DNA of 64,000 bases, taken from positions 235,415 through 299,414 of the forward strand of contig CAXXFK010000015.1 of the NCBI GenBank assembly GCA_963663965.2, given 5' to 3'. Source of the stretch: Sedimentisphaerales bacterium. GTDB taxonomy: Bacteria > Planctomycetota > Phycisphaerae > Sedimentisphaerales > SM23-30. Positions 6,406 to 23,270 of this stretch are shown here, one piece after another (within the stretch, counting starts at the first letter, position 1; each line of letters starts with the position of its first letter). The position numbers and the translations under genes are program-made. Below the pieces are notes generated by a model that did no database searches, had not been told where the DNA came from, and saw nothing but the letters and a program-made list of their open reading frames with translations.

Positions 6406-6421
6406 ACATAGTGGACAAAAT

Positions 6422-7369: not shown

Positions 7370-7450
7370 CTTGTGTCTCCTGTAAAAAAAGTAAAAGTAA
7401 AGTAATTGGTGTGTGAGAATTTTTTTAATTCATATTATTCAATTGTCATA

Positions 7451-7483
7451 AACGAAGCCTATCACAGTCTAAAATTTTGTCAA
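7451..7483 (-). promoter_or_regulatory. sigma70-type promoter, shared phage motif copy 2
   Basis: TTGACA-16-TAGGCT within CTGTGATAGGCTTCGT. Confidence 0.7.
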
Positions 7484-7522
7484 ACTGAAATAGGCAAAAA
7501 TGCTAAAATTTTAGAAAATAAT

Positions 7523-8236
7523 TTATTGGCGACGAGGGACTCTTATGCCAAAGTGGATTTGTGACTTAGATTCACGGGTATGTAAATACTGGCCCCATCG
7601 CTTGAGCAGATAATTAATTTCTTTTTGGTGTCGTTCCTGTGATCGAAGCTTGGACCCGCCGCCTGCCCCGGCAAATAAATCGTAGGCAAAGTCATAGCGT
7701 CCGTCCACCATAACGATACGGTCTAACATCAGAGACTTCAGGCAAAAGTCAATGTCTGCCCGGAGCAATAGCGAGGTGTCATAGCGAAGCTCACGGCCTA
7801 TGATCCCAATCGAACCGCCTACCCAAGCATTGAGATGGAACGGGTCAAACGGCTTATAAGCCACAGGGCGGGCGCAAATCTGAAACCCGAACACTCTGGC
7901 CCCGGCCTCCTGTGCGACGATGGCGAGACGTTCCACAATGGCTTGAGCCTCTCTGGGATCGGTGATCCGTCTCTTGTGAAACCCGGTCTGGTCGTAGAGC
8001 TTTTTGAGGTCATCGTCGATTTGATAGACTACCGGATCGTCAACGTGATCCAGAATCCATTGGCGAAGCGGGCCAATGCCAAGAATATCGTCCGGGTGGA
8101 TCAGCAAATTTTTTGTGACCTTGAAATAGTCGTCACGTTCTGACTCGCCAACACATACCACAGCGTCAGGGAACAGGGCGAGAGTTCTCTCGCCCACAAT
8201 ATTTGATCGGCCTTTACTCGGAATAACTATCTGCAT
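7523..8236 (-). CDS. GREB1/TAGT-like GT-A glycosyltransferase
   Basis: IVIPSKGR start, RQWILD..VYQIDDD (DxD), RADIDF, GAGGG..R, LLKRWG. Confidence 0.75.
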   Translation of the reverse strand: MQIVIPSKGRSNIVGERTLALFPDAVVCVGESERDDYFKVTKNLLIHPDDILGIGPLRQWILDHVDDPVVYQIDDDLKKLYDQTGFHKRRITDPREAQAIVERLAIVAQEAGARVFGFQICARPVAYKPFDPFHLNAWVGGSIGIIGRELRYDTSLLLRADIDFCLKSLMLDRIVMVDGRYDFAYDLFAGAGGGSKLRSQERHQKEINYLLKRWGQYLHTRESKSQIHFGIRVPRRQ

Positions 8237-8922
8237 TATTTTTGCTCCTTAGCATAGCTGGAAAGGTTTTGAAGGAACTGGGCCCCATCGAGAACACGGC
8301 CCACACCGACTTTCTTGGTTCCACCGGGATATTTAACCTGAACTTTCTTCAAGCCAAAACGTTCGCAAGCCTGCTGAAAGTTCTGGGTATCCTTGAACAT
8401 GAGCATTACATAGTCATAACTCTCAAACGGCTGAAGTTCCATTCCGGGAAGGTCAATGTCTGGAATATTCTCAGCCATGTCCATGTCAGGGTCAACGCTT
8501 CCCGGCATCGTCTGAGAAAGCGTGTGGTGCAGCAATTCTCTCACCCAGAGGCTGTCAGCCTCCACCGATTCGGTCAGAGCGTGGTAAATTTCCTGATCGC
8601 CGTTGGCCATGGCCCCTACAGGATCGAGCGAAGCTAGAATGATCTTCTCGGCCTCCTCAGTCCAGTTGCCAATCAGAACTGGGACCAGTGTGTCAGGGCT
8701 GACCACGGAACGTCTGGCATGTCCATCGATCAGACGTTTAGTCCGTTCGTTGTAGAGCAATGGGGCGGCCCACCCAATCTCGGGATTTTCAATTAAATCC
8801 TTGAGCGTGGACAATTGATCGTCCGGGTGCTTACGCCAGTTGTTAGGGTTTTCGTCGAGGCTTCCAGCCTCAATCCACTCAAGTCTTAGTTGCTTTTGTT
8901 GGTCGGTTAGTTGATCGTTCAT
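8236..8922 (-). CDS. ParB/Srx-like domain protein
   Basis: NPNNWRKHP..Q, PLLYN...LIDGHARR; coupled to the GT gene by TAATG overlap. Confidence 0.8.
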   Translation of the reverse strand: MNDQLTDQQKQLRLEWIEAGSLDENPNNWRKHPDDQLSTLKDLIENPEIGWAAPLLYNERTKRLIDGHARRSVVSPDTLVPVLIGNWTEEAEKIILASLDPVGAMANGDQEIYHALTESVEADSLWVRELLHHTLSQTMPGSVDPDMDMAENIPDIDLPGMELQPFESYDYVMLMFKDTQNFQQACERFGLKKVQVKYPGGTKKVGVGRVLDGAQFLQNLSSYAKEQK

Positions 8923-9204
8923 AAAATTACTCCAAAATGGTGATTGTCTTAAAAACGCCGTAAATGGCTCTCTATTGAATTTTCTCGGTTTCTAGGTCTG
9001 TCGGTAAAGGGTTAGGGTCAGTTTTTGCAATGTAGGCATAATTCTGTGTGAAATTGGCGTATGTCTGCCAGTTGTCAGAACGTCAGAGGAAATAATAGCA
9101 CGGTTCGGGAGTGTTCCCGAAGGGGTGGGGAGTCGTTTCAAGTCTAGGAAGGACCCATCGTTTTGTTTTTTGTGCTGACCACAGCGATTTCCACAGCCGG
9201 GCCA

Positions 9205-9518
9205 CAGTCCACATGTATCCAACTTGAGCTTCTTAAAGAGGGGTATTTTGTTTTTTTAAAAATCAACTCCTCGCACACGAATAAGGGTCACGATAAGTGT
9301 ACGAAATATAAAGTTTATTAGTGTGGTTATTTAATTGTGTAAGAACGTAAGAAATGCGTAAGAAGTCTAAATTTCATTCTTTCTTACACCTTAAATGTAG
9401 TATATATATGTATTTAGAAGACATGTAAGAATGTAAGAAGTCAAAAAGACCAAAATTCAATTTTAAAAAAACAAAATACCCCCCTTTAAGAAGCCCAAGT
9501 TATGATACATGTGGGCTG
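9205..9518. repeat. ~58-bp inverted repeats around an AT-rich core with GTAAGAA repeats; putative replication origin
   Basis: 9205-9262 matches the reverse complement of 9461-9518; GTAAGAA at 9339, 9347, 9358, 9425, 9433 and inverted at 9381. Confidence 0.75.
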
Positions 9519-9546
9519 ACCAAATGTGGGCATATCTTTGCATTGG

Positions 9547-9963
9547 TCATCTCACAATAAAGCAAGGCTCAACGCTCATCATCGCAGACCAGAGAACGTT
9601 GGTTCTCTCACCGTAGTCATAGCGTGACTTCATGCCGGTCAGAGACCGCAGGGCATATTTGACCACCTGCAAGTCTTTGTGTTCCCCATAGGATTGAATG
9701 GCCTTGTTGAGATTAGCTAGGGCCTTGGCCCATTGATCATCGGTGATGTGTGGCTGGCCCGGCTGCATCTTGCTGACTGAGTTGTCTATCTCGTCCAGCA
9801 ATCTCTCAGGCAGGCCATTGGGCAGAGGAACAAAAACAGCAGTGTTGTCTGTGAGACGATAAACCCAACCGCCAATCACCCTGCTTATAGCTGTGTCGTA
9901 TTCGGTAAAAATAGTTTGGTGTAAGTCCATTTCACACAACTGTTTCGGTGTTATTTTAGCCAT
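9547..9963 (-). CDS. Hypothetical phage protein
   Basis: 138-aa ORF with RBS, co-oriented with neighbours. Confidence 0.65.
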   Translation of the reverse strand: MAKITPKQLCEMDLHQTIFTEYDTAISRVIGGWVYRLTDNTAVFVPLPNGLPERLLDEIDNSVSKMQPGQPHITDDQWAKALANLNKAIQSYGEHKDLQVVKYALRSLTGMKSRYDYGERTNVLWSAMMSVEPCFIVR

Positions 9964-9997
9964 AATTTTCTCACTTTCTGTGGTGTGTGTTAAAATC

Positions 9998-10021
9998 TTG
10001 ACACTTATCGATAAGTGTCAA
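9998..10021. promoter_or_regulatory. Perfect 24-bp palindrome carrying TTGACA on both strands
   Basis: TTGACACTTATCGATAAGTGTCAA. Confidence 0.75.
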
Positions 10022-10037
10022 TGTTTTGCGTTGCCCA

Positions 10038-10361
10038 TTATTCAGGCTCAACTTCTTCAGATATGTCAAAACCGAGCTTCGCATATATTTCGTGACCGTC
10101 CACATAGCATTCCCCCAGATACTCTTCATAAATCATCGGATCAGGTATCCCGATTTTTTTCAGAAGCTCATAAAACACTGCGTCCGGGTTAGAGGTCCAG
10201 TCATCGACATACTCGTTGTTGATCAGAATCGGCCTGTCGTCCTGCGTGAACAAATCAAGGCCGATGGCTTCCAGAATCTCATCGATCAACTCAGACTTGT
10301 CCGGGTGATCGGCCCTCATTTTAGTGGTATTATAGGCCCGCATGTCTATGGAAAGTCCCAT
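10038..10361 (-). CDS. Hypothetical acidic phage protein
   Basis: 107-aa ORF abutting the upstream gene. Confidence 0.6.
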   Translation of the reverse strand: MGLSIDMRAYNTTKMRADHPDKSELIDEILEAIGLDLFTQDDRPILINNEYVDDWTSNPDAVFYELLKKIGIPDPMIYEEYLGECYVDGHEIYAKLGFDISEEVEPE

Positions 10362-10364
10362 TAT

Positions 10365-10733
10365 TCAGCCTCGCTTTCCTGTTTTGGATTTTATGGTCCG
10401 TTTTCTTCTGTGCTTCACATCAATGTCACCACCACAGTGTTTGCAGAGTTTATTGGTTCTTGCACAGACATCGCATAATTTATCGGTGCATGTGTTACCG
10501 AAGACCATGGGTTCACCACATAGGGCACATTCCACTTCAGTTATAACCGAGCCACCAATCCGGGTTCCATAGTAGTAGCATACTGGGCACTCATTTCTCT
10601 GGTGTCTTGAATCTTTATGTTGGTCATCTGTGAAACATTTAGCCCTTTTGATAGTATGGTCCATAATGTCTCGTGCGTGTTGTGTATCAAATTCAATAGT
10701 TGCTAGGTTAATTTGTATTTTTCTTGCTCTCAT
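10365..10733 (-). CDS. Cys-rich zinc-finger phage protein
   Basis: CPVC, CALC, CDVC, CKHC; RBS GAAAGCGAGG. Confidence 0.7.
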   Translation of the reverse strand: MRARKIQINLATIEFDTQHARDIMDHTIKRAKCFTDDQHKDSRHQRNECPVCYYYGTRIGGSVITEVECALCGEPMVFGNTCTDKLCDVCARTNKLCKHCGGDIDVKHRRKRTIKSKTGKRG

Positions 10734-10751
10734 TGAATCGCCTCGCTTTCT

Positions 10752-11068
10752 TCAAGCGTCTGGGTATCGCTTTGATAGCTTGTTCAGATTTGTCTTGAGA
10801 ATATCTTCGAGCCAGTTCCCAAGCGAATCGATCCCAACTGACTGATACCATTCAATTCCCCAAGTTCTTCCCGCAGGTTTGTCCGGTCAATTTCTTTGCC
10901 ATAAAAAATATGTCTTTTGAGTTGATCCAGAAACTCAGCGGCCTCGGTACATAAACCCATGCCCACATGCAGGAGCCGGGCTAAGTATGGGTCAGACAGT
11001 CGCTTGACTATCTCTGAATAGTCAGGCTCAAGCCTTTTTATTGCGTCGATGTAAGCTTTGTGATCCAT
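10752..11068 (-). pseudogene. MazG-like NTP pyrophosphohydrolase, frameshifted near 10856
   Basis: GLCTEAAEFLDQLKRHIFYG...EELG, then alternate frame IEWYQSVG...NLNKLSKRYPD. Confidence 0.75.
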
Positions 11069-11073
11069 TTTGT

Positions 11074-11541
11074 TTACATCCTCTCTTTGATTGCAAAAGG
11101 TTCATCGGTCAAATACTGTGGGCTAGAATGAATGTCTCCAATCACATTACATTTCTTAAAAAGATGTGCAAGAATGATCTGCCCGTCTTTTGCTTCAGCA
11201 ACAAACTGGCCTTGCCTGTATCGCACAGCAAAGGGCTTAGGTAGGGTGGACCCTTCAAGAGTGATGTTAAAATTAATAAGAATGTCACCCTCAAACACTA
11301 ATTCACCATTAAGAGAAACCTCCCCGGTGCATTGCTCGCTATTGTCGTGAGCTTCCCAAAGGGTTATAGTGTTTCCGGTTGTAGGACCATAGTAGCTCTT
11401 CTCGTTCACAAATCCCCAGTAGGCGAAGCGGTGGAATTTGCCGTCAACATAGATTGCTTGTCGGAACTTGATCCGGGTATAGAGCCTTCTCTGTATTTCC
11501 AATGCTTCCTGTTTATCCATTTTGTTTGCTCGCTTTCTCAT
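11074..11541 (-). CDS. YopX-like phage protein
   Basis: IKFRQ...QCTG...NGELVFEGDI...VIGDIH. Confidence 0.7.
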   Translation of the reverse strand: MRKRANKMDKQEALEIQRRLYTRIKFRQAIYVDGKFHRFAYWGFVNEKSYYGPTTGNTITLWEAHDNSEQCTGEVSLNGELVFEGDILINFNITLEGSTLPKPFAVRYRQGQFVAEAKDGQIILAHLFKKCNVIGDIHSSPQYLTDEPFAIKERM

Positions 11542-11795
11542 GCTGGAACTGGCAACCAGTCCACATACTCAATATCGTGTGTATATCGTTTATCGTTCAC
11601 CACAGTGTGAATTGCCGTACCATTATTTATTACTCTGAAGTCATAATAGGGATCGTCTTTGAATTTAAAACGTATCAGGATCGGGCCGCAGTGTGTTGGG
11701 GGCTCGTGGTCCAGCCTTCGCCATCGTACAGCGTCCCGATATTTAGCAATCTTCATCGATAGCCTTGAAATAGTCTGATCACAGTTGTAAGCCAT
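11538..11795 (-). CDS. Hypothetical phage protein
   Basis: 85 aa ending WLPVP; RBS; overlaps next start. Confidence 0.6.
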   Translation of the reverse strand: MAYNCDQTISRLSMKIAKYRDAVRWRRLDHEPPTHCGPILIRFKFKDDPYYDFRVINNGTAIHTVVNDKRYTHDIEYVDWLPVPA

Positions 11796-11797
11796 TG

Positions 11798-11911
11798 TTA
11801 TGATCCTCGCTTTCTTTCGTCTCTTTTGACCTCGATATAAACCACTGCATAAAAGCCGAGCATAATGAGCCCAAAAACCAGAGACAAAATCAAAATAATA
11901 TAGTCAAGCAT
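11798..11911 (-). CDS. 37-aa single-TM microprotein (absent from ORF track)
   Basis: MLDYIILILSLVFGLIMLGFYAVVYIEVKRDERKRGS; RBS GAAAGTGAGG. Confidence 0.55.
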   Translation of the reverse strand: MLDYIILILSLVFGLIMLGFYAVVYIEVKRDERKRGS

Positions 11912-12024
11912 CGTGTTATGATCCTCACTTTCTGACTTTTTAGATTAGCCGCCCGGTGGTAGAGGTCCGGGCGGCTTGTTCAACATATTGCCATATTGTG
12001 ATTTCTATCAGACTCGTCTGTTTG

Positions 12025-12261
12025 TCACGAGCCGCTGGTAGAATTTATTTCATTTTTACCCCCATTCTGGCTTGCTTGCTGGTGCAACTTGCGTGCAACG
12101 ATTAAGTCACGAAGCCGCCTGCTTAATCTGCATTGTTTCTGTTGGATCAGTTCATACTCCCGGTCAATGTCGATCCCTTCCAAGGGGTCTTTGATTTTTC
12201 GATACACAGCCGGGGCATGTTTACGAGTTATTTCTTTAAGCATGTGTAATGTTTCAATCAT
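12025..12261 (-). CDS. Hypothetical phage protein
   Basis: 78-aa ORF, co-oriented. Confidence 0.55.
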   Translation of the reverse strand: MIETLHMLKEITRKHAPAVYRKIKDPLEGIDIDREYELIQQKQCRLSRRLRDLIVARKLHQQASQNGGKNEINSTSGS

Positions 12262-12287
12262 CGGGATTTGCTCTCTCTTAAAAAAGA

Positions 12288-12722
12288 TTAGTTGTCAAAC
12301 CAGAATACACAGCGAACCCGCTCAACCGGGGTCCGGTCGATGACTTCCTCACTGTAAACAGCACTACCAAACATATACCCAAACATCTGGTCAAAGCTCC
12401 TGTCAGCATGAAACGGAGTTTCCCATCGATAAGGAGGAAAGGTCTTGTACCACTCAGACAGTGACTCAAGCTCGGGCCTTGACAGCCAACTGACCGAGTG
12501 TGCATCAACTCCCCAGTTAGCCAGCTCAGCTTGCGTTACTGCTGAAATGTCTGTCGGCGGTCCCTTGGGTGGAGAAATTGGCTCAATAGTGCGTCCAGAG
12601 TCATTTCTTACCCCGGCCATTTTCGCAAACAACCAGTAGTCCCGGCTGATTTGAAGTCTGTTATAAGCGTGCCAAACCCCATTAAGTTTCACTTCAATAA
12701 ATCCGTAAATATCACATCCCAT
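12288..12722 (-). CDS. Conserved-type hypothetical phage protein
   Basis: MGCDI...RDYWLFAKMAGVRN...HSVSWL...VFWFDN pattern; RBS CAGGAG. Confidence 0.7.
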   Translation of the reverse strand: MGCDIYGFIEVKLNGVWHAYNRLQISRDYWLFAKMAGVRNDSGRTIEPISPPKGPPTDISAVTQAELANWGVDAHSVSWLSRPELESLSEWYKTFPPYRWETPFHADRSFDQMFGYMFGSAVYSEEVIDRTPVERVRCVFWFDN

Positions 12723-12796
12723 GATTAATCTCCTGTATTAGAGTCAAAAGTTAAAGGACGTTCAGTCTCTTACTGAGCGTCCGGTCAATCGGTTTA

Positions 12797-13375
12797 TTAG
12801 TTGAAAGCCAAATCGGAGAGGATGTCAGGATTTCCTGAAATAGCGCAGTGATAAACATTCAGAGCAACTATCGCCTCAGCGGCATCACGCACGATGCTCA
12901 AAAAATCGCCAAAGTTATCAGAGTCAACTTTAAATTCAAAAACGCCCGTCCCGCCTTTTCCGCCCTTGGCTTCGGCTGTGAAGACTTGAAGTGTTTTTGC
13001 GGCAAAAATTTTATACAAAAAGGTCAAGCGGGCAAAGTCTTTGGATTTGAGCTTGCAACAGTCGTCGCACTTAGAAATATGGCCATCGACCTCTTTCATC
13101 ATGCACAAATAAATATCAAAGGTTGATATGCCCATATGTTTAGTGATCTGCCGTGAGACGATCATAAAGGCTGTCTCGTTCTTAGAATAAAATCCCTTGA
13201 GGTACTCTTCTGAGGACAACCCCGGATTTGGGACATTTCCGTCTTCAGCCGTAAGAGACATGAAGGCTAGAATGTCGCCAATTAGATTGTCGACCATGAT
13301 GACATCTTTGGAGTTGAGTTTTTGTTCTGATGGGCCCGAGGTGTTTTTGTCCGAACAGTTTGCATTTGCAACCAT
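12797..13375 (-). CDS. Hypothetical moron-like protein with its own promoter and downstream hairpin
   Basis: 192 aa; promoter 13421-13454; hairpin GGACGTTCAG/CTGAGCGTCC at ~12756-12782. Confidence 0.65.
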   Translation of the reverse strand: MVANANCSDKNTSGPSEQKLNSKDVIMVDNLIGDILAFMSLTAEDGNVPNPGLSSEEYLKGFYSKNETAFMIVSRQITKHMGISTFDIYLCMMKEVDGHISKCDDCCKLKSKDFARLTFLYKIFAAKTLQVFTAEAKGGKGGTGVFEFKVDSDNFGDFLSIVRDAAEAIVALNVYHCAISGNPDILSDLAFN

Positions 13376-13420
13376 AAGTTGTCTCCTTGTTTTAGTGGTG
13401 TGTGAAATAATTTAAATCTA

Positions 13421-13454
13421 AACGAAGCCTATCACAGCAAACAAAAAAGGTCAA
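13421..13454 (-). promoter_or_regulatory. sigma70-type promoter, shared phage motif copy 3
   Basis: TTGACC-17-TAGGCT within CTGTGATAGGCTTCGT. Confidence 0.7.
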
Positions 13455-13477
13455 TCGTAAATTCTAAAATTTTATAA

Positions 13478-13666
13478 TTAATTTTCCCTTTTGTCCGCTT
13501 CTTTAGTTCTGCTATCGAGTCGCTTGATTTCGTCTTCAGTGTAGCCATGCTCAAGTTGCCAACTTTCGTTGTACCTGTAGTAACACTTATTGCAAATCCG
13601 TGAACGTGCTCTAGTGAGCTTCCCGCAACAGATACAGTCGTTTAATTCTGGTCTAGGCTTTGACAT
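13478..13666 (-). CDS. Small Cys-rich phage protein
   Basis: CICC...CNKC. Confidence 0.55.
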   Translation of the reverse strand: MSKPRPELNDCICCGKLTRARSRICNKCYYRYNESWQLEHGYTEDEIKRLDSRTKEADKREN

Positions 13667-13976: not shown

Positions 13977-14184
13977 CGTCAGGCCCTCTATAGTCGTCAA
14001 TGTCATCAAACAATGTGCCTTCCAACGGGGTAATAGTGATTTTTACCCGTGATCCGGTAACAATGAGTTCGTCCAGCAGTTCCAAGTCAGAGCCTTCGAT
14101 GGTACATGGCTTGATCTGGATTGCCCGGCCTGTGTTGGACGAACTGGTTGTTTTGATCTTGGCTTCCTTGATAGTTACTTTCAT
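13960..14184 (-). CDS. Hypothetical phage protein
   Basis: 74 aa; RBS CAGGAG. Confidence 0.6.
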   Translation of the reverse strand: MKVTIKEAKIKTTSSSNTGRAIQIKPCTIEGSDLELLDELIVTGSRVKITITPLEGTLFDDIDDYRGPDDDEKE

Positions 14185-14213: not shown

Positions 14214-15080
14214 TTAGTCAGATACAAACTGACGAGTTGATTTGTCGCTTCTGAGGATTGATTCAAAATAACCGTATTTGCAGTTTTTTGCGTTCCTGAG
14301 AGATAGGTCAGAAACTTCGTAAGCATGAATTACCGGGATTTGGCGTTTAGTTGCGAAGGCTACTTCAATGTCCACGCCTTCAGATACCCCCGGAGGGGTG
14401 TCGGCAACAATCAAGTCACAAATACTGATAATTTCACAGTCAAGGTCCAGTATTTCACCGGCTGTCATTAGCCCGGCCCGGTAAGCGTTGCGCATGGCAG
14501 GCTCGAACTTATGAGGGACGTACATACGGACTGGTCTTTTAAAAACACGTTCAAGTTCCTGTTGAATGGCCAGTGATCGTTTGAGTCCCCGGTTGTTGTT
14601 GGCGTTTAACTGTTCGTCAGTCACTTTGTCGCCGTGTTCACCCCGCATAGAAGCCGAGTAATACACACTGATGGGTCTGGGGTCGTGTTTTGAAGTCGTC
14701 GCCTCCACAGGGGTTCCAGAAGCCCCAGAAGCACTCGGGGATTTATGGCCTTTGTCGTCCGGGTTCTCGAAGTAGAGATAGCAAGCCATACTCAACCGGC
14801 ACAAGGCGTGAGTCAGGTCTTCTTCATTTGGGTTGTCCAGAAACTTATAAAGATGAACGAGGGCATGATCCAGATGTCCCCCGGTTCCATCCACACAGGT
14901 CAGGGCCACTTTGTGCCAGTTGTTCAGGGCATATTTTTTAGCCCCGTAAGTAAAAACTCTGGCCAGTGCCAGAGCCACTCCGGGCGGAACCGCTGTGGGC
15001 CACTCAGCCATTTCCGATCCCTGCCCGCCTCTGGCATTGGTCTCAACGGGTTCAGTTGTCATTGACTTAGGTGTGGTCAT
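14214..15080 (-). CDS. Fusion of a DUF5664 (dATP/dGTP diphosphohydrolase-like) domain and a nucleoside 2-deoxyribosyltransferase-like domain
   Basis: N-term ARVFTYGAKKY..NNW..HL..H...LTHALC; C-term VYYSAS...YVPH...DCEIISICDLIVA...SEGVDIEVAFA...IPV. Confidence 0.72.
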   Translation of the reverse strand: MTTPKSMTTEPVETNARGGQGSEMAEWPTAVPPGVALALARVFTYGAKKYALNNWHKVALTCVDGTGGHLDHALVHLYKFLDNPNEEDLTHALCRLSMACYLYFENPDDKGHKSPSASGASGTPVEATTSKHDPRPISVYYSASMRGEHGDKVTDEQLNANNNRGLKRSLAIQQELERVFKRPVRMYVPHKFEPAMRNAYRAGLMTAGEILDLDCEIISICDLIVADTPPGVSEGVDIEVAFATKRQIPVIHAYEVSDLSLRNAKNCKYGYFESILRSDKSTRQFVSD

Positions 15081-15106
15081 GTGGTGTGTTTCCTTTCTGT
15101 TTTGGT

Positions 15107-15406: not shown

Positions 15407-17015
15407 CGCAGAGATACAGAGTTTCTTTAGCTCTGGTCATTGCCACATAGAACGCCCTGATAATCGAATCCCGCAACTCCGGGTTCGTTCCCCGGTTCCA
15501 TGATTCCTGAGCCACTGGTGAGAGGTCAGGGGCCACATAGACCACGTCAGCCTCAGCCCCCTTGAATGAGTGAATAGTCCCGACATAGAGCTTTGGTTTT
15601 TGCTCATACACAGACAAGCCGTTGGCCTGAATTAGTTTAATGGGGTACTTGGTCTGCTTTAGCGAGGAAGATTTAACCTGTGACTGCCAATAGTTAATAA
15701 CCTCCCGCTGTTTGCCAGCCATGAGCAGTTCGCCATATTTCTTAATGGCCTCAAGATTGACAAACTCAAGTAATCCGGTCCAATTTGAGTTTGGGGGTAG
15801 TTCGTCGGCCTTCTTCTCTGCGTTGGATTTCTGTCCCTTGATAAAAATAGCCTCAGCCGACAAGGGGCCAGTCCACGCCATAAACTCTCTCACTGTCCAT
15901 GGCTCAGGATTTGGGTTAGAATCTGACCGGCACATTCTGAGAAGAGACAGAATCCTATGGTGCATTGATCTGCCGAGATTTTCATTAACCGGGTTCCATG
16001 TGTAGTTTGTTTTTCGCCATGGATTAGAGAAATATATCCCATATTCTCGAAGCTGTGTGATTAATTTGATAAGCATGTAGGAACAGGAGGCCATAATCAT
16101 TACAGACTTGCCATCGGCAAGGTGTTGCTGTGCCGATTTGATCATCCATTCAGGATCGGTGAAGGGAAAATTAAAACGAGACACTTTACCGTCGAAGTCT
16201 CTGGGCTTGTAGTCAATCGGGGAGTAGTTAGACAGTCTCTTTATCCACTCAATTGCCCGAGCGTGTACCGCCCTTGGAATACGCCAAGATTGCCCCAGAA
16301 CCCGCCTGTGATCGTCCGGGATAGCCGGGTCGTTCAATAGGTCAGGATCAGCCCCACGCCAAGAATAAAGCGATTGCCAACCATCGCCGCAAGCCATCAT
16401 TGCCCCCGCCTTTACTCCCCAGAATTTGAGTAAATCATACTCTAATTTTGAGAAGTCCTGAACTTCATCTGCGATGACTATATCAGGCTTGCCCATCGGC
16501 TCAATCCCCAGCGTGAGGCACTCTTCAATCATGTCCGTGAAGTCGAGGGAATTATTATCCAGCTTCCACTCAGTCCATTTTTTAGCAAACGATCTAACGT
16601 CCGCTGTCCACCATTCCTTGGGAGTGAGCTTGTGTCGATACAGAGAGTACTGATTATACAATCTGTCCCCAAGCCCACTTTTACTGGATTGCTGATCTAA
16701 GTTGTCACCGTCGATATTTGAGCCTTCATCTGTGAGAGCTAACGCAGGATAGTCTTTGTTCCATTGTTTAATTTTGACTAGTTTCTTATCATATCCAATG
16801 GCTCGATAAGCTAAGCTGTGAAGTGTCCCAACCATGGAGTCGGACACAGGCAGGTCACGGCTTGCGATCTCCCGAGCCGCTGTGGTAGTCAATGAGCAGA
16901 TTAATGGAGTCAAGCCCTTGTCGCATAGCTGATTGACTTGCTTGGCTAGAAAAGTCGTCTTGCCCGTTCCGGGCGGGCCGATGATCGAATAGAGTCCCTT
17001 ATATTCAGATTCCAT
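15375..17015 (-). CDS. UvrD/Rep-like SF1 helicase
   Basis: GPPGTGKT, TLHS, DEVQD, GD..QSLY.WRGA, TIHSFKGAE, YVAMTRA; start moved to MESEY. Confidence 0.9.
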   Translation of the reverse strand: MESEYKGLYSIIGPPGTGKTTFLAKQVNQLCDKGLTPLICSLTTTAAREIASRDLPVSDSMVGTLHSLAYRAIGYDKKLVKIKQWNKDYPALALTDEGSNIDGDNLDQQSSKSGLGDRLYNQYSLYRHKLTPKEWWTADVRSFAKKWTEWKLDNNSLDFTDMIEECLTLGIEPMGKPDIVIADEVQDFSKLEYDLLKFWGVKAGAMMACGDGWQSLYSWRGADPDLLNDPAIPDDHRRVLGQSWRIPRAVHARAIEWIKRLSNYSPIDYKPRDFDGKVSRFNFPFTDPEWMIKSAQQHLADGKSVMIMASCSYMLIKLITQLREYGIYFSNPWRKTNYTWNPVNENLGRSMHHRILSLLRMCRSDSNPNPEPWTVREFMAWTGPLSAEAIFIKGQKSNAEKKADELPPNSNWTGLLEFVNLEAIKKYGELLMAGKQREVINYWQSQVKSSSLKQTKYPIKLIQANGLSVYEQKPKLYVGTIHSFKGAEADVVYVAPDLSPVAQESWNRGTNPELRDSIIRAFYVAMTRAKETLYLCDGNTGGTFSF

Positions 17016-18711
17016 CCCACACCCCCGAGTCTGCCGAAGCTTGCCAGTAGGAAGCGTTGTCAACCCCACAATCAAGACGAACAGACATTTTGTATGATCT
17101 AAAGCCCGTTTTTCGTAACATGCGAGTGACATCTGAGCGATTCGCAGAGTGGTTCCCAAAAAAGTTGTGAATAAATTTGAGAAAGCTTGAATAGTGGATA
17201 TAAATTGTACCGTTGTGAATAAACGGCTCTCTCTGTTTAAAATAATCGTGCCAGTCATTGCCATTGTAAACAGGCTTTTGGATCAGAAATGTCCTGATAT
17301 AGTCAACTGCTATGTTATACTCTAGACTGTCATTGTCTTCGATTTCCTCTGCGATAGAGAGCAGGAGGCCAACACATTTTTTCCATTGGGCCGGTTTCAT
17401 GGCCGGGACCGGATCGGCAAGCATAGCGTCCATGATCTTTGTCCGAAAAACATTGGCCTGCACCATTGAGGTCGAGTTCCCGATTGTGACTTCTACCTCC
17501 TGCCCATCCAACTCAAGGACCACCGAGTATTGAGTCTTCTCCCGCCCCTGACATAATACTTTGACCAATGGAATCTTGAGGACATTACGAAGCATCTCAA
17601 GCTTCTGCTCTTTGGTCTGGTCTTTGAGCGTTTCAGAGTGATCAGGTTTTGGGATACCAATTTTTGTCCGCTGTTTGTCTGTGAACAGATCGGGCCCCAT
17701 TACTGACCCAAGCTTTGCTTTGTGGATCGTCCGGGCAATGTAGTCGTCCCGATCAGTAACTTTAGATAAGTCATGCCCATGCTTTTTTCGGAAAGCATAA
17801 ATCAGCCCGGCAATCTCAGAGTCAGGCCAGTCTAATTGAACCAAGATGTTACAGAGGGCCATATCGTAGGAAGAAGGCGATTGATCAGGCATATCCAGCC
17901 GCTTTTTGTCCCAAGTGCGAGCAAACGACTCGACATTCTCTTTGAGTAACATGAATTTATCGGGGTCAAACTGACCAACTTCGCAAGGGGTCAGTTCCAC
18001 AGGCTGAGAAGAGCTTTCATTGCCTCCTGTAGCTGTTGTTTTAGTTATCTTGAATAGATCATTCAAGGCATACCGGGGCACGTCCCGGCCTTCCCAGTTG
18101 TGAGGGTAATAAATTTTGACCTGTTTTGGATTGTCAGTGTCTTTATTGTTATAAGTCCCAGGAACTCTCAATACTCTGGCAAAATCGTGTGTGGTGTCGA
18201 GATCATAGCCCGAGGCCCGGAATACCGCCCTGAGCTTAGCCTGCCAACTCTTGACGGCGTTCATACCAACGGCCCTGTCGTCGTCATCCGTGAATATCCA
18301 AGGCTCTTCTAATAGCCAGTAGGCGTGCCATCCGTTGCCCGAGTCAACAACGATTGAGGGCATGAATGGGAATTTCTTGATCAGTTCAACCGCTGTCTTT
18401 TCGTCGGGCGGGACGTTTTTCTTATGATTTGGCCCGAAGTCTATATCGGCCCACAGACACGTTATTCCCGCTACTTCTGTTGACTTGGCTCTGGTAGTTG
18501 GCGCTAGAGGTTCTGTGGTCAGACCAAGGCCAAAGTAGAGGTCCACATCAGATTTGTACTTTGTTACGTCAACTTCCTGACCGGCCTGAAAACTGTGTGA
18601 GTGCTTCGGTGGATTGGCCCAGAGATAATAATAAAGGTTCTCTGGGACACCCTTAAATATCTGACTGAGGAACTGGTTCGCTAATTGGTTGTCTGGTGAT
18701 ATGATTTTCAT
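17005..18711 (-). CDS. RepB-like primase (AEP) with helical C-terminal domain
   Basis: LWADID, PSIVVDSGNGWHAYW, D..RVLRVPGTYN; DQSPSSYD motif. Confidence 0.85.
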   Translation of the reverse strand: MKIISPDNQLANQFLSQIFKGVPENLYYYLWANPPKHSHSFQAGQEVDVTKYKSDVDLYFGLGLTTEPLAPTTRAKSTEVAGITCLWADIDFGPNHKKNVPPDEKTAVELIKKFPFMPSIVVDSGNGWHAYWLLEEPWIFTDDDDRAVGMNAVKSWQAKLRAVFRASGYDLDTTHDFARVLRVPGTYNNKDTDNPKQVKIYYPHNWEGRDVPRYALNDLFKITKTTATGGNESSSQPVELTPCEVGQFDPDKFMLLKENVESFARTWDKKRLDMPDQSPSSYDMALCNILVQLDWPDSEIAGLIYAFRKKHGHDLSKVTDRDDYIARTIHKAKLGSVMGPDLFTDKQRTKIGIPKPDHSETLKDQTKEQKLEMLRNVLKIPLVKVLCQGREKTQYSVVLELDGQEVEVTIGNSTSMVQANVFRTKIMDAMLADPVPAMKPAQWKKCVGLLLSIAEEIEDNDSLEYNIAVDYIRTFLIQKPVYNGNDWHDYFKQREPFIHNGTIYIHYSSFLKFIHNFFGNHSANRSDVTRMLRKTGFRSYKMSVRLDCGVDNASYWQASADSGVWDGI

Positions 18712-18907
18712 TTCGTTGCCACTCCATGGCTGTGCCGAGTCCTAGACATACCGGGCATTGTTGCCGGGCCGGGTCGCCCCCCAGAAATGTCATTACCTCG
18801 TCACTGCTGTCCATATTGTTCAAAGTCCCCCGGCCTGAGCAGACGGGGCACTGAATTTTTACAAGGTCAACGCCTTGTTTTTTTAGTCTTGGATCGATTT
18901 TGAGCAT
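18653..18907 (-). CDS. Small protein with two CxxCxGxG zinc-finger repeats
   Basis: CPVCSGRG and CPVCLGLG. Confidence 0.6.
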   Translation of the reverse strand: MLKIDPRLKKQGVDLVKIQCPVCSGRGTLNNMDSSDEVMTFLGGDPARQQCPVCLGLGTAMEWQRNENHITRQPISEPVPQSDI

Positions 18908-18972
18908 AATTTCAATAAGCTGTGTGGGGCACTAAACAATCCCCACACAACCAACAACGTAATTAGGAGATA

Positions 18973-19710
18973 TTATTCAGAGGGAGAGGGAGTGGCGGCC
19001 TTCATACCGAGGGCCACAGACATTTGGTCAAAGAATTCTTTCGAGCCATCTTCAAGGACAGCTTGGATGTTCGGATTGACCACAGAATACTTGATACCGT
19101 CTTTGTTTTGCTCAGTGACCAGAGTGAACGAGGTTAGGACGTGACTGAATTTCAGTCGTCTCATGGTCAACCGCATGGCGTATTTTTTCCATGCGCCGAG
19201 AGAGGTTGGGGGCAATGTAATCACGATGGGGAGACAGTCTTCTTTACGATAGACCATCAAAGCCTTCATTTGTTTACAGGCTTGTCCCCGGCCAGCCCCG
19301 CCCTTGTCCGATCCGAACTGGGCAAGTTGACATTCGGCACAACAGCCGCCCGGTGATCCGTGGCCAAATACGCCATCTTCTGATGAGCAGGCAGGAGGCT
19401 CTCCACCCGTTTCTTCAAAGGGCCGTTCCCAGTAACCCCGGCCATTTCGTTGAGCAATGACCACACCCGTGATCTCTTTAACGGAATCTTCAGAACCGTC
19501 AGGCATAATCACTTCCCACGATTTACCACCGCCAGCAGGAACAGAGATTCGCTCCAAGTCCCGGACAGTAAGTTTATCGGCTCCGAGGTTGTCAGCGATA
19601 AGCTCCCGGAGTTGAGTTATATCGCCCCCGGCAAACTGGGTAATAGCGAAGTCGTTGTGACTGATTACCGCCAAGGCGGTCGATGCAGGCTCATCTTTTT
19701 TGGCTGTCAT
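18973..19710 (-). CDS. Phage replication-module protein, possibly SSB-like
   Basis: PPACSSEDG...CAECQL.QFGS...GQACK...TLPPTSL; lies between primase and SNF2 helicase. Confidence 0.6.
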   Translation of the reverse strand: MTAKKDEPASTALAVISHNDFAITQFAGGDITQLRELIADNLGADKLTVRDLERISVPAGGGKSWEVIMPDGSEDSVKEITGVVIAQRNGRGYWERPFEETGGEPPACSSEDGVFGHGSPGGCCAECQLAQFGSDKGGAGRGQACKQMKALMVYRKEDCLPIVITLPPTSLGAWKKYAMRLTMRRLKFSHVLTSFTLVTEQNKDGIKYSVVNPNIQAVLEDGSKEFFDQMSVALGMKAATPSPSE

Positions 19711-19736
19711 AGATTTTACTCCTGAAAAAAGTGGTG

Positions 19737-20135
19737 TTATTTTTTAACTTTGACCTTAATGGTCTCAGATACTTTTACGAGTGCTTTCAGTTCGTCAGGC
19801 AGGTCCGGGAGACCCTGTTCGTCGGGCGGGTATTCCCGCACCATGGCCGAGAGCCGCTGGCTGGCAATGCTGGTTGTGATCAGATCGTCAAAGCCGTTCT
19901 CCCTGAGATATTCACAGAGAGGCTCCTGACCCTGACTGGGCGATGCCCAGATTTGCCGGTTGAGATAAATGGTCCGGTCATCGACTTTGATGTTCTGAAT
20001 ACCAGCCTCAATCATTTGGTCCTGAATATAGGGCTCAAGCTCAGACATCTCATACTTAATAGCGTCGATGTTTGCGTCAATCTCGGCTTTTTGTTTAACG
20101 AGCTCGACGTACCGTTTGAATTTGGTCATGTCCAT
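19737..20135 (-). CDS. Phage coiled-coil protein (gp33-like)
   Basis: N-terminal coiled coil; replication-module context. Confidence 0.55.
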   Translation of the reverse strand: MDMTKFKRYVELVKQKAEIDANIDAIKYEMSELEPYIQDQMIEAGIQNIKVDDRTIYLNRQIWASPSQGQEPLCEYLRENGFDDLITTSIASQRLSAMVREYPPDEQGLPDLPDELKALVKVSETIKVKVKK

Positions 20136-21790
20136 TAGTCACCTTCTTTCTTTTTATACATTTCTAGTACCGATTCAACGATCTTCTTTTTGGACATAAG
20201 AGATCGATATACTTTTGCGTCCACTGTGCCTTGTGCTATTAAATGCAGGAAGGTCACAGACTTGTTTTGTCCCGGTCGATGTAATCTGGCCCGTGATTGT
20301 TCGTATTCACCCAGACTCCATCCTGTGGAGTAATACACGCAATAACAAGCACGGGTGAGGTCGATACCGACCCCACCGGCTTGTATCTGAACAGCCAGCA
20401 CATCGCCCGGTTTTGCTGAGTTTTGCCAACGGTCTAATTCGTTAATTGTCCCCGATAGTTCCATACAGGTCCGTCCTGACTGGCAGGCCGCTTGGGCAGT
20501 GACAGACAGATCATTTCTGAAGCGACAGAAAACAACGATTGGCTCACTGCTGTCAATCGATTCAAAAATGTCTAAGAGTTCCCGATACTTGGCCGTGCTG
20601 ACCGTGTGTGTTTCGTCGGTGTGTTCGTCCGGGTCAGGGAGAAAGCCCGAAGTGATTTGCTGAAGCCTGAGCATTCGACTCAGAGCGTTGTTTGCCACAA
20701 GTTTGCCTGAGCCGACATCGGCTATGAATTCTTTCTCAAGTGTCTTGTAAAGTTTTGTGGCCGATGGCTCTAGCTCAATGTCACGGAGTTCATCTGTGTA
20801 GGGTGGAAGGTCGAGAACATCGCTCTTGTGGACCTTCAGGGCTATCGAGTTAAACTTATCCTGCAACTCTGGTATATTCTGGTATCCAAGAATTTGTTTG
20901 CCTCCATAGCCGCCCATTTGAGCGTATCGAGCCCGGAACATGGTGAACGAAGTCCCGTAAATAGAAGGATCAAGAAACCTGTACTGACCATAAACATCAA
21001 GCGGACTGTGGGGCATGGGTGTCCCTGTCAGCCCGACTCGTTTTTTGGCGTTCACTTTTCGTCCGAAAAATTTGCTGGTGATGCCAGAATGAGATTTGAT
21101 TTTGTGGATTTCATCACAGACAACTATGTCCCAATCTGTCTTCTCAACTACCTCGCCGACTTTGCCCTGATAGACCCCATCATAGTTGACCACAAAAACA
21201 AGAGGCGGGACTGTAGGCTGATGAAACTTAATCATTCGTTCCATTAGATCGCCCCGCTTCTTCAAGGGCCCCTCACCCAGTGTGACAATGATGAAAGGCC
21301 AGTAACCGTGCTTCTCGAATTCTTTCTTCCAGTTAGGGACCACAGACTTTGGGGCAATGATCAGGGCCAGCCTGAATGGCCAGTTATTCAAAGCGTCAAT
21401 CGTTGTTTTTGTTTTCCCCGTACCCATATCGTAAGCCAGCATTGTCGCATCTTGATTAATGATCGCATGAGTGCCCCGAAGCTGGTGATTCCAAGGCTTC
21501 ATGCGTGTGGTTGCCAGTGGCGGTAGTTCGACAGCTGGACAGTATTTGAATTTCTCGGCCCGTTCAAACCGCTCAACCGTCTGGACGAATTCATGGATTA
21601 TTTCTGGCCTGTCACAAGCCGCCCGCAATTCCGGGTTAGACATAATGTCATGGATCACTCTGGCTGTCTTTGGGTACTCCCAATGTTTTTTTGATTTGTT
21701 CCAGCTTGCGCCGGGAATAGCTTTTAATACGTCCTTGTATATATAAGGAGTTTTAATAGCTATTTTATCTGTTACTTCCACAGCAATCAC
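20135..21790 (-). CDS. SNF2-family helicase
   Basis: DMGTGKT, DEIHKIK, LTGTP, GGVGIDL, QSRARLHRPGQ. Confidence 0.9.
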   Translation of the reverse strand: MIAVEVTDKIAIKTPYIYKDVLKAIPGASWNKSKKHWEYPKTARVIHDIMSNPELRAACDRPEIIHEFVQTVERFERAEKFKYCPAVELPPLATTRMKPWNHQLRGTHAIINQDATMLAYDMGTGKTKTTIDALNNWPFRLALIIAPKSVVPNWKKEFEKHGYWPFIIVTLGEGPLKKRGDLMERMIKFHQPTVPPLVFVVNYDGVYQGKVGEVVEKTDWDIVVCDEIHKIKSHSGITSKFFGRKVNAKKRVGLTGTPMPHSPLDVYGQYRFLDPSIYGTSFTMFRARYAQMGGYGGKQILGYQNIPELQDKFNSIALKVHKSDVLDLPPYTDELRDIELEPSATKLYKTLEKEFIADVGSGKLVANNALSRMLRLQQITSGFLPDPDEHTDETHTVSTAKYRELLDIFESIDSSEPIVVFCRFRNDLSVTAQAACQSGRTCMELSGTINELDRWQNSAKPGDVLAVQIQAGGVGIDLTRACYCVYYSTGWSLGEYEQSRARLHRPGQNKSVTFLHLIAQGTVDAKVYRSLMSKKKIVESVLEMYKKKEGD

Positions 21791-21827
21791 AGGCCAAGCC
21801 TTTCAATTGAGATCAGATTTAAGTTAA

Positions 21828-21973
21828 GGAGCATGGCCGGGATTTGAACCCGGCTCGGCGTTGGTGTTGGAGAACAGTCTTACGAGTATTGAGATAGTCA
21901 GTCTTTTTAGATGTGGTGTGTGAAGACACCATCGCCTTCCAGCCGTTTGAGCGTCCATTCTCAAACCATGCCC
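21828..21973 (-). ncRNA. tRNA-shaped 146-nt RNA with a large insert in place of the anticodon/variable arms
   Basis: Acceptor GGGCATGG/CCATGCTC, D-arm TGAG-AATGGACG-CTCA, T-arm CCGGG-TTCAAAT-CCCGG, internal stem GGCGATGGTGT/ACACCAACGCC. Confidence 0.65.
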
Positions 21974-21995
21974 GTATTTTTTTTTAAAGAACTAA

Positions 21996-22068
21996 TAGCG
22001 GAGCCGGGACTTGAACCCGGAGTCGGGGAGCATGAATCCCCGGTGTTAGCCAATTACACTACTCCGCA
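21996..22068 (-). tRNA. tRNA-Met(CAT), atypical
   Basis: Full cloverleaf; anticodon arm GGGGA-TTCATGC-TCCCC; T-loop TTCAAGT; U1:U72 mismatch; CCA not encoded. Confidence 0.85.
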
Positions 22069-22240
22069 GTATTTTCCCGGATGTCGCCGGGTTCGCTTGC
22101 CACTTGGTGTCTCAGGCAGGCAACGCCTGTTTTTTTGCTCGGCCTCCAAGGTTTTCGGTCGCAGACAGACGCTGCGTCTAGCTCACATCTGCCCCCCTGA
22201 GTCAGCAGGAGGCCAATTGACTCACTTCGTGGTATTCCAA

Positions 22241-22313
22241 AGCCACCCGCAGGAGTCGAACCCGCAACATTCTGAGTACAAAACAGATGCTCTCCCAGTT
22301 GAGCTAGGGCGGC
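22241..22313 (-). tRNA. tRNA-Thr(TGT)
   Basis: Acceptor GCCGCCC/GGGTGGC; anticodon arm TCTGT-TTTGTAC-TCAGA; T-loop TTCGACT. Confidence 0.9.
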
Positions 22314-22328
22314 TAATATTCACTTGTC

Positions 22329-22368
22329 AAAAAGTGTGCGGATCGGCTCGGTCAGACCGATCCGCACG
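22329..22368 (-). terminator. Intrinsic terminator after the xis-like gene
   Basis: 11-bp stem GTGCGGATCGG/CCGATCCGCAC followed by a T-run on the minus strand. Confidence 0.65.
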
Positions 22369-22382
22369 AAAAAAAAGAGGGT

Positions 22383-22655
22383 TCATGGAGTGCTTGCGTT
22401 AATTTCAGTCTGATACTCTCCCCCGATCCCGCTGGGGCCCACAGAGACTAAGGGAATTTCTCGGGTTACAGACTGTTTGATTAGTTTTTCAACAGACGAC
22501 TCGGTAACACGTTTTTGCGTTCGTGGAGTATTGGTCAGTGCGACTATTTTTAAGCCCTGCGCTTTTAGTTCTGGTAGCCATTTGTAAAAAGTGCTCAGGG
22601 CCATTCCCAGCCTTCGTGCCGCTTCTTTGATCGTGATAAGTGTTTCGGTTTTCAT
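22383..22655 (-). CDS. Excisionase-like HTH protein
   Basis: LITIKEAARRLGMALSTFYKW. Confidence 0.75.
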   Translation of the reverse strand: MKTETLITIKEAARRLGMALSTFYKWLPELKAQGLKIVALTNTPRTQKRVTESSVEKLIKQSVTREIPLVSVGPSGIGGEYQTEINASTP

Positions 22656-22806
22656 TTCATCTGTCCTTCTCTATGGTTTTCCATGGGCTTCTTTTTTATA
22701 GCCCCTCATAATAATGGGAAAATTATTCACGACACCGGACGAAATGGGCTGTTTTTCATGCATATAGGCCGTTTCTGGCTTAAAAATGAGGTTTTTGCCA
22801 TGCATA

Positions 22807-23163
22807 CTAGTCATCAAAAAAGTCGTCGTCGTAAGTTTCCGACTCTTGATTGTGGATTATTGATTCTCTAGCTTTTCGTTCCTGATCCGACAACTGCTGT
22901 AGCAGGAATGGGGTAGTCTGACCGATTATTCGTGATACCTGTGACTGGGAGATGCTGAATTGGGCGGCCAGATCGCCCTGTGAGGCCCCCATGAGTGACT
23001 GGGTGGTGATTTTCATCGCCCGACTGTCCGGAGCTTCAGAGAAAGCTTTCTCCATCGCCTCAAGCTCTTTATCTTCTGCTTCATACCGGGCAAGCATGGC
23101 CTCCCGCTCTTGAGCTAATTTTTTTCGTCGGGCCTTGACTACGGACAAGAAGTCTGCTATCAT
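22807..23163 (-). CDS. Coiled-coil + HTH protein, possible repressor
   Basis: GASQGDLAAQFSISQSQVSRII. Confidence 0.65.
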   Translation of the reverse strand: MIADFLSVVKARRKKLAQEREAMLARYEAEDKELEAMEKAFSEAPDSRAMKITTQSLMGASQGDLAAQFSISQSQVSRIIGQTTPFLLQQLSDQERKARESIIHNQESETYDDDFFDD

Positions 23164-23228
23164 TATTCAAGTCCCCCTGTGGATGGAGGTCTTGAGTAGT
23201 CTATAATCATAAAAATAGCCGTAACCAT
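23163..23228 (-). CDS. 21-aa leader ORF coupled to the HTH gene
   Basis: MVTAIFMIIDYSRPPSTGGLE; RBS GGGAGAC; TAATG overlap. Confidence 0.4.
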   Translation of the reverse strand: MVTAIFMIIDYSRPPSTGGLE

Positions 23229-23270
23229 GGTGTCTCCCATGTGGTGTGTGAGTCTATGACCGTTACGGAA

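Follow-up and report, generated by a model that had tools for sequence, protein, structure and literature searches.

A sense-oriented leader box in a Sedimentisphaerales prophage and its match to a candidate antisense RNA

What reads a ten-nucleotide word that recurs, always in the same orientation, in the leaders of early phage genes? The question is raised by a 64,000-nucleotide stretch of contig CAXXFK010000015.1 from a Sedimentisphaerales bacterium (Planctomycetota), referred to here as the window, whose left 25 kb is supplied by a 45.5-kb prophage spanning window positions -20420 to 25102 (negative numbers lie to the left of the window). The word, GTGGTGTGTG on the plus strand and CACACACCAC on the coding minus strand, will be called the box. 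The initial annotation regarded it as an RNA-level cis element, and named a nut/boxA-like antitermination site or a binding site for a protein or a small RNA (sRNA) as candidates. A strand-specific element of 5′ leaders fits everything that was seen, and the sRNA option gained from the presence of an exact complement of the box within a predicted unit bounded by a promoter and a terminator, whereas the nut/boxA option did not stand. The explanation that we favour, tentatively and as one that falls somewhat short of probable, is that the boxes are pairing sites on early mRNAs for an antisense RNA of the sar/c4 type with added trans targets.

Copies of the box and their placement

An exact search of the window placed the box at 9980, 13395, 21913 and 23241, always on the plus strand, and copies with a single terminal mismatch were found at 7406 (TTGGTGTGTG) and 15081 (GTGGTGTGTT, both in plus-strand letters), which reproduced the initially annotated positions. 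Shuffled sequences contained on average 0.13 exact copies, and four copies were reached in none of 100 shuffles. When one mismatch was allowed, the window gave 10 matches against 2.71 expected, a number likewise reached in 0 of 100 shuffles. The four matches not named so far lie at 284 and 9743 (plus strand, inside phage coding sequence) and at 8152 and 58840 (minus strand).

The whole genome contains 10 exact copies in 7,238,956 bases, four of them within the prophage; the six copies in the host are all inside long open frames, none in a leader. With no more than six host copies in 7.2 Mb, the idea of a host Chi-like or uptake-type word was rejected. Within the prophage, matches with up to one mismatch numbered nine in the sense and one in the antisense orientation, compared with 1.75 expected from the genome-wide rate. 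Three of the nine sense matches (9743, 284 and -1383) fall in coding sequence and may be due to chance. Non-coding DNA makes up 2498 of the 24,787 bases between the integrase and portal genes, and contains all six copies of the box, which occupy six of the 17 intergenic gaps of at least 20 nucleotides (nt) and are all sense-oriented. The earlier claim of a copy number far above chance, on one strand and outside the genes, was borne out by these counts, and the box was not equally frequent in coding or host DNA or on both strands.

All six non-coding sites fall between 7406 and 23250, and none is found in leaders of the late half of the prophage. Whether an RNA or a protein reads it, the box would mark the early transcription units of this phage that are under common control. 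One could suppose instead that the repeats are functionless, arising by chance or as remnants of duplicated promoter-leader cassettes, and the sites at 13395 and 7406 indeed follow paralogous promoters that have a 19-nt identical stretch in common. This is very improbable: besides the failure of shuffling to produce four copies, the distance between promoter and box differs at these two sites (about 15 vs about 34 nt), the flanks of the other four sites are unrelated, and three promoters of the same family lack the box.

The distribution described initially, five copies in 5′ leaders just before a start codon and one in the insert of a tRNA-like RNA, was found again (Table 1). From the end of the box to the ATG there are 0 nt at 23241 and 15081, 16 nt at 9980, 19 nt at 13395 and 36 nt at 7406, and in four copies the box sits 3-25 nt upstream of a Shine-Dalgarno (SD) sequence. 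The host rrn promoter (TTGACA-17-TAAACT) and the 3′ end of the 16S rRNA (CCTCCTTT) indicate that sigma70-type promoters and SD logic are valid here.

The 23241 copy precedes an open reading frame (ORF) of 25 codons, the upstream ORF, whose stop codon overlaps the start of a gene for a helix-turn-helix (HTH) regulator (TAATG); a second in-frame ATG, with the SD sequence GGGAGA, follows 12 nt past the first. The 15081 copy occupies the whole spacer that separates the ATG of gene 14214-15080 from its SD sequence, AAAGGA. Two copies follow extended -10 promoters: counted from the inferred start, the 13395 copy begins after about 15 nt and the 7406 copy after about 34 nt. The 13395 copy also lies 8 nt ahead of its SD sequence, GGAGA. 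At 9980 the box is located 8 nt downstream of a perfect 24-bp palindrome, a possible RNA hairpin/attenuator or else an operator placed over a -35 element. At about -19312, to the left of the window (L013), a leader reading TCACATACC...GGAGACAC...ATGG resembles the 23241 leader in degenerate form and is a possible seventh, weaker site. Another repeated word, CCCGGACGA (six sense copies, no antisense copy), was dropped as in-frame P-D-D/E coding sequence in five of its six occurrences.

The box contains no G and no SD core; it is C/A-rich, with two ACA triplets and an internal CC. This composition allows the explanation that it is a factor-independent translational enhancer, an unstructured ACA stretch aiding binding of the 30S subunit. 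Five of the six copies lie at or just upstream of ribosome-binding sites, the box is predicted to be mostly unpaired in four of the five leaders (0.60-0.87), and ACA motifs have been described to raise translation without strict spacing (PMC3879156). Yet CA-richness would suffice for such a role, whereas 10-13 nt, including the internal CC, are kept exactly in unrelated flanks, and one copy resides in the tRNA-like RNA, far from a start codon. Complementarity to the 16S rRNA was also rejected as an explanation, the longest run being 6 nt vs 6-7 nt in shuffles; a run of 10 nt found some 3.7 kb past the 16S gene is no longer than chance allows. As a self-sufficient explanation the enhancer is quite improbable.

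The nut/boxA version failed on several counts. The best match to the box in the host rrn leader (800 nt) and spacer (700 nt) has four mismatches, which is the shuffle level. No conserved boxB-like hairpin was seen beside the box by eye, with no formal structure search, and the six flanks are unrelated beyond 1-3 nt. One copy is situated between a Shine-Dalgarno sequence and its ATG, which counts against such a site. Among the 40 phage proteins scanned no N-like, Q-like, NusG/KOW or RNA-binding Pfam domain was recognised, the sole hint being a weak match of an 84-aa zinc-finger protein to a PHROG 'Q-like' family (E 4e-4).

The same observations bear on the wider explanation that a sequence-specific protein reads the box on nascent RNA or on the non-template DNA strand, for example an RNA-binding translational regulator, an antiterminator or an RfaH/ops-type NusG paralogue, in which case the antisense RNA described below, if real, would act in cis only. 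In favour are the asymmetry of the box, its strict sense orientation and its confinement to leaders; its common flanks give the consistent consensus tCACACACCACat, it is private to this phage, as in fast-evolving specificity pairs, and many phage proteins are without known function. On the other side stand the protein domain scan, the lack of a conserved hairpin, for the boxA version the four mismatches of the best match in the rrn leader and spacer, and the variable spacing of the box, which begins at about +1, +15 and +34 relative to promoters and ends 0-36 nt from start codons. We consider a protein reader unlikely.

A candidate antisense RNA and its matches to the boxes

The 23241 copy of the box lies inside an ORF-less unit of the plus strand that is predicted to make an antisense RNA (Table 1). 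Its longest frame, read by eye, has 10 codons. The candidate promoter is of the sigma70 type, with 5 such matches in 3.7 kb vs 4.7 in shuffles; a perfect TATAAT without a good -35 element is present at 23202-23207. The terminator is the sole one on the antisense strand of the 45.5-kb prophage under strict criteria, and in a relaxed scan it ranked first of 197 by hairpin energy (-18.3 kcal/mol). Weaker hairpin-plus-T sites of the plus strand exist between 21500 and 25200, where 9 terminator-like sites were counted on both strands vs 4.1 in shuffles. Because the minus strand carries every gene recognised in the window, a strong plus-strand terminator points to a plus-strand transcript. Rfam returned no match other than tRNAs for positions 1-26000 at E values up to 1.

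The candidate RNA would carry GUGGUGUGUG (23241-23250), the exact complement of the box, and the 23241 copy would be the template of this proposed seed. The RNA would cover the start region of the upstream ORF, to which the HTH regulator gene is coupled. In the predicted fold CCGUAAC (23219-23225) and GUUACGG (23262-23268) close a hairpin that holds the seed in its upper part and is followed by the terminator. The mean unpaired probability of the seed is 0.52-0.54, compared with 0.36-0.43 for the whole RNA.

The match between this unit and the other sites extends beyond the ten nucleotides of the box. The sense segment opposite the RNA has 14 exact 11-mers in common with the rest of the sense strand of the prophage (8 in boxes, 3 in poly-A and 3 others), and none with the antisense strand. 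Compared with the 23241 locus, contiguous matches of 11 nt are found at 7406 (CTCACACACCA), 9980 (CACACACCACA) and 13395 (TCACACACCAC), of 12 nt at 15081 (ACACACCACATG) and of 13 nt, the longest, at 21913 (TCACACACCACAT). At both sites with a terminal mismatch, 7406 and 15081, the match runs further on the opposite side, as would be predicted if all the sites paired to one RNA. The loop of the RNA is complementary also to the box together with the SD context GGAGACA(C) at 7406 and 13395. Such bipartite pairing was not retained as extra support: GGAGACA is the usual SD context of this phage, with nine sense copies including box-less leaders, and adds little.

If the boxes are pairing sites for this RNA, the plus-strand transcript would have the regulator operon as its cis target, pairing there with the start region of the upstream ORF to which the HTH regulator gene is coupled. 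In trans, the G/U-rich seed would form duplexes of 11-13 nt with the leaders of four further early genes or operons, at their ribosome-binding sites or immediately upstream, and with the insert of the tRNA-like RNA as well. These duplexes would keep ribosomes from the message or cover an ACA-type enhancer of translation, and several early operons would be held down together by one RNA. Such a system would combine the mode of P22 sar or P1 c4 with a multi-target seed of the GcvB type. The enhancer described above can coexist with pairing, and the box may be an enhancer that is silenced by the RNA. Because no Hfq gene was found in the host genome (94.6% complete, searched with PF17209), pairing is proposed to be Hfq-independent, either unaided or helped by another factor.

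The copy within the tRNA-like RNA could serve as one more target, or as a decoy by which the RNA is titrated. The tRNA-Ser(GGA)-like gene was detected by ARAGORN with introns allowed and a relaxed score, and was missed by the default run and by the Rfam tRNA model. It directly follows genes for tRNA-Thr (22240-22314) and tRNA-Met (21996-22068); the equivalent place in the nearest relative, G001, has a single tRNA. The mean unpaired probability of the box within the tRNA-like RNA is 0.60. A role as decoy or sponge, suggested already in the initial annotation, or as a further target is possible, and would be compatible with the longest of the matches being at this site. The more elaborate version, in which the early genes are switched by RNA only, is improbable: here the G/U-rich loop seed would silence ACA-type enhancers of five early units, and the co-transcribed tRNA-Ser-like scaffold would serve as a stable decoy that titrates the RNA at induction and gives feed-forward release, acting as an 'RNA antirepressor'. 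The 170-nt GC-rich spacer between the tRNA-Thr and tRNA-Met genes (22069-22239, minus strand) has a weak terminator-like site of the plus strand at 22113-22132.

The nearest relative of the phage is a syntenic prophage in genome G001, with 35-62% protein identity over 27 genes. At the same position this prophage has an antisense promoter (TTGACA-16-TGaTATAAA) and a terminator with an 11-bp stem and T7, both identified as consensus matches, and on the strand facing this unit an upstream ORF and the start of the homologous HTH gene (29% identical, E 1e-11) overlap. The antisense unit would thereby be conserved in kind while differing in sequence. Conservation of the box itself in related phages, which the initial annotation had proposed to look for, was not found: CACACACCAC is absent from comparable places in G001, which has no multi-copy box, and among 35 more distant loci (22-58% helicase identity) none has it comparably placed. 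No closer relatives were found with the helicase protein in genome and viral collections or in 61 and 401 related genomes, nor with alignment-based scans or DNA patterns in viral contigs. In the HTH regulator gene of G001 (G001:C8 22997-23104; L011) there is a 54-nt tandem duplication, which repeats HDNLGNRER-I-KLQKA.

Several observations weigh against pairing in trans. The RNA is a prediction from sequence, with a promoter and a terminator recognised only by their likeness to the consensus. Any antisense RNA spanning the first early leader would include a leader box, whether or not the two had anything to do with each other, which makes the overlap of box and RNA weaker evidence than a first look suggests. 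A 13-nt protein motif with soft ends, tCACACACCACat, would look the same as the extended matches. Run over the whole prophage without accessibility terms, RNAduplex did not separate sense from antisense targets (best -40.1 vs -39.3). The 5′ half of the seed is predicted to be open (0.5-1.0), but its 3′ half is partly paired (unpaired 0.11-0.5), and among the targets the 9980 box is poorly accessible by prediction (0.37). The 7406 box, at 36 nt from its start codon, and the 21913 box, which is 122 nt upstream of the start of the SNF2-type helicase gene (21790), are far from the genes that they precede.

The relatives add to these points. The antisense unit of G001 has 4 sense and 3 antisense 10-mers, and 18 and 17 9-mers, in common with the rest of its phage, which is the chance level. 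One of the 10-mers matches the start codon of the homologue of the box-bearing ATPase gene; with common words at chance level, and the segment in a predicted stem, it was taken as chance. There is no covariation of seed and targets across the relatives. The 35 distant loci contain no exact sense copy of the box; two of them with identical sequence (L036 and L037) have one sense match with one mismatch, and L047 has one exact antisense copy. In place of the RNA unit L048 has a classical gene for a 112-aa cI-like protein, ended by an antisense terminator. Judged from three genomes, this phage and G001 appear to carry an RNA unit where some relatives carry a divergent repressor gene.

Promoter family and prophage setting

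The inferred promoters upstream of the 13395 and 7406 boxes belong to a family of five prophage copies, TTGAC-N11/12-(C)TGTGnTAGGCTTCGT, with an extended -10 element and the hexamer TAGGCT (Table 1). A simple consensus promoter scan skips this family, TAGGCT matching three of the six -10 positions; its recognition as a family is based on five copies in the prophage and an analogous pair in G001, TTGAC-N-GTGTGCTAAGTT. The G001 pair was observed as TTGAC-N-GTGTGCTAAGTTTAAGTA at G001:C8 34935 and 35689 (L012). Three members lead into near-identical leaders ending in GGAGACAAAAAAATG. The box was also considered as a promoter element and rejected, as three of the five family promoters are box-less and no -10-like element follows the box at a fixed distance. 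Since these three promoters have no box, it is a leader element and not part of the promoter.

Table 1. Positions of the box copies and of associated features in the window
Feature	Position	Strand	Description
Window within genome	G000:C15:235415-299414		
Box copy 1	23241..23250	-	CACACACCAC, exact; abuts ATG of upstream ORF 23163-23240
Box copy 2	21913..21922	-	Exact; inside tRNA-like insert
Box copy 3	15081..15090	-	AACACACCAC, first base differs
Box copy 4	13395..13404	-	Exact; gene 12797-13375
Box copy 5	9980..9989	-	Exact; gene 9547-9963
Box copy 6	7406..7415	-	CACACACCAA, last base differs; AAA ATPase gene 6422-7369
Candidate antisense promoter	23135..23163	+	TTGACT, 17 nt, TATCAT, TG upstream; 10/12 consensus matches
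Candidate antisense/trans RNA	23170..23307	+	About 138 nt from first promoter, about 93 nt from TATAAT
Intrinsic terminator	23272..23307	+	Hairpin 23272-23298; 12-bp stem, 3-nt loop, T8
HTH regulator gene	22807..23163	-	118 aa; translationally coupled to upstream ORF
tRNA-Ser(GGA)-like gene	21828..21975	-	58-nt anticodon-loop insert; acceptor, D and T arms
Perfect 24-bp palindrome	9998-10021		TTGACACTTATCGATAAGTGTCAA
Family promoter	13419..13454	-	Upstream of box copy 4
Family promoter	7449..7488	-	Upstream of box copy 6; TCTAAAATTTTAGA palindrome copies on both sides
Family promoter	6373..6406	-	Box-less leader
Two family promoters	About -18989 and -18183		Without box; left of window
Integrase gene	23717-24913		

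Copies of a 14-bp palindrome, perfect as TCTAAAATTTTAGA or nearly so, were observed beside or inside promoters of the family, at 7502-7515, 4834-4847 (within a gene), 13463-13474 and about -19728. It is likely the operator of a dimeric regulator of the promoter family.

The palindrome bears on the explanation that the box itself is an operator, a stoperator-like asymmetric DNA site at which a monomeric repressor, perhaps the 118-aa HTH protein, stops RNA polymerase in an orientation-dependent manner. All six sites are sense-oriented and intergenic, which corresponds to hallmarks of stoperators as described in PMC9283540. A site before the regulator's own operon would permit autoregulation, and no classical repressor gene was recognised in the prophage. 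But six sites confined to the early half contrast with the more than 20 across both arms described for L5 (PMC9283540), none of the six overlaps a recognisable promoter, and a palindromic operator candidate already accompanies the promoter family. A phmmer search with the HTH protein, the one protein tested, against all PDB chains at E values up to 1 found no relative among solved structures, stoperator repressors included (best E 0.11, not a repressor). G001, moreover, is without a multi-copy asymmetric word. We regard a stoperator-like role as distinctly unlikely.

At the two ends of the prophage, 42 bp from the 3′ part of a tRNA-Gly gene (25061-25132) are present as a direct repeat. The integrase gene is followed by genes for the HTH regulator and an excisionase-like protein, two tRNAs, helicases and a primase; further along the prophage there are genes for nucleotide metabolism and DNA modification, then terminase and portal. 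Words of the type ATTGTGACAC(TTTA), of which the prophage has five of the nine genome copies, are clustered beside both attachment (att) ends, at 24966-24991 and from about -20116 to -20242, and are probably arm-type sites of the integrase. Between the integrase gene and the regulator operon about 425 nt of the minus strand (23292-23716) contain no convincing ORF. A sense promoter-like TTGACA-17-TACTAT (23591-23563) and GC-rich hairpins were found in this segment, which has no match in Rfam and could be a long leader or another RNA.

A gene set at 7523-8922, 10784-11068 and 14214-15080 suggests that the phage DNA is modified. Its members are a TET-associated glycosyltransferase (PF20691), a ParB-/methyltransferase-like protein, a MazG-like pyrophosphatase and a protein with a dATP/dGTP diphosphohydrolase N-terminal domain and a weakly deoxyribosyltransferase-like C-terminal part.

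Comparison with known systems

Phage RNAs of the sar, OOP, c4 and P4 CI kinds are textbook cases; to our knowledge each of them controls a single operon, and enterobacterial phages are the source of them all. Like P22 sar and lambda OOP, the unit predicted here is an ORF-less stretch between a promoter and a terminator, on the strand facing the beginning of a regulator operon. These two RNAs have a single target each, whereas 10-13 nt of the present unit recur at five further places. No relation of the unit to sar or OOP was found by sequence or in Rfam. The sar and OOP RNAs are described as 68-77 nt transcripts from the strand opposite a regulatory gene that exert their effect by pairing, sar blocking the initiation of ant translation (PMC12197685).

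With P1/P7 c4 and P4 CI the candidate has in common that a small phage RNA would pair with several sites on early transcripts. Unlike the convergent antisense unit seen here, which would serve several separate operons, c4 and CI are processed from a transcript of the same sense and act on one operon. Processing of both is carried out by RNase P. As described, c4 blocks a ribosome-binding site by pairing, the complementary segments being thought to lie in loops (PMC12197685), and P4 CI pairs with two sites, seqA and seqC (PMC4825925). Short segments of these RNAs pair with more than one site on the early transcript and set immunity specificity (PMC12197685, PMC4825925).

The box, with its two ACA triplets upstream of an SD sequence in four copies, also resembles the targets of GcvB. 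The seed of GcvB is G/U-rich, like GUGGUGUGUG. GcvB is a host sRNA and depends on Hfq; here regulator and targets would all be phage-borne, in a host in which no Hfq was found. In enterobacteria this multi-target RNA is described to mask ACA enhancer motifs just upstream of SD sequences (PMC3879156). Lambda nut/boxA sites are leader elements downstream of early promoters, and in this the boxes are alike; they differ from them in having no likeness to the host rrn leader, no hairpin, six copies and no recognised N-like protein.

If the pairing explanation is true, a cis-antisense RNA would have gained a regulon, made up of several early operons that carry short boxes, and would show how a cis regulator changes into a trans regulator. 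The setting is a phage of the poorly studied Sedimentisphaerales, in a host without an Hfq that could be found. A 10-nt seed and six boxes would offer a compact pair for compensatory mutation, and the tRNA-like copy, should it act as a decoy, would amount to a natural sponge on a tRNA scaffold.

The stoperators of Cluster A mycobacteriophages (L5 gp71 type) are described as asymmetric 13-mers located in short intergenic spaces and oriented with transcription (PMC9283540). More than 20 are spread along the whole genome; they are bound as DNA by a known two-domain repressor, and operators that overlap promoters are among them. The box, by contrast, has six copies in the early half of the prophage, and no repressor of that type was recognised. 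Closest among published observations is the start-associated sequence (SAS) of Cluster K mycobacteriophages, a phage-private asymmetric 13-mer that occurs in one orientation upstream of the starts of non-structural genes and is essentially absent from the host; its trans factor is described as 'either RNA or protein' (PMC3203893). The SAS includes an SD core, lies 3-7 bp from the start codon and has 93 sites over the genomes analysed, whereas the box is without an SD core, ends 0-36 nt from the start codon and has six copies. Should a protein be the reader of the box, the finding would likewise be new, as a system of the stoperator or SAS kind beyond the actinobacteriophages.

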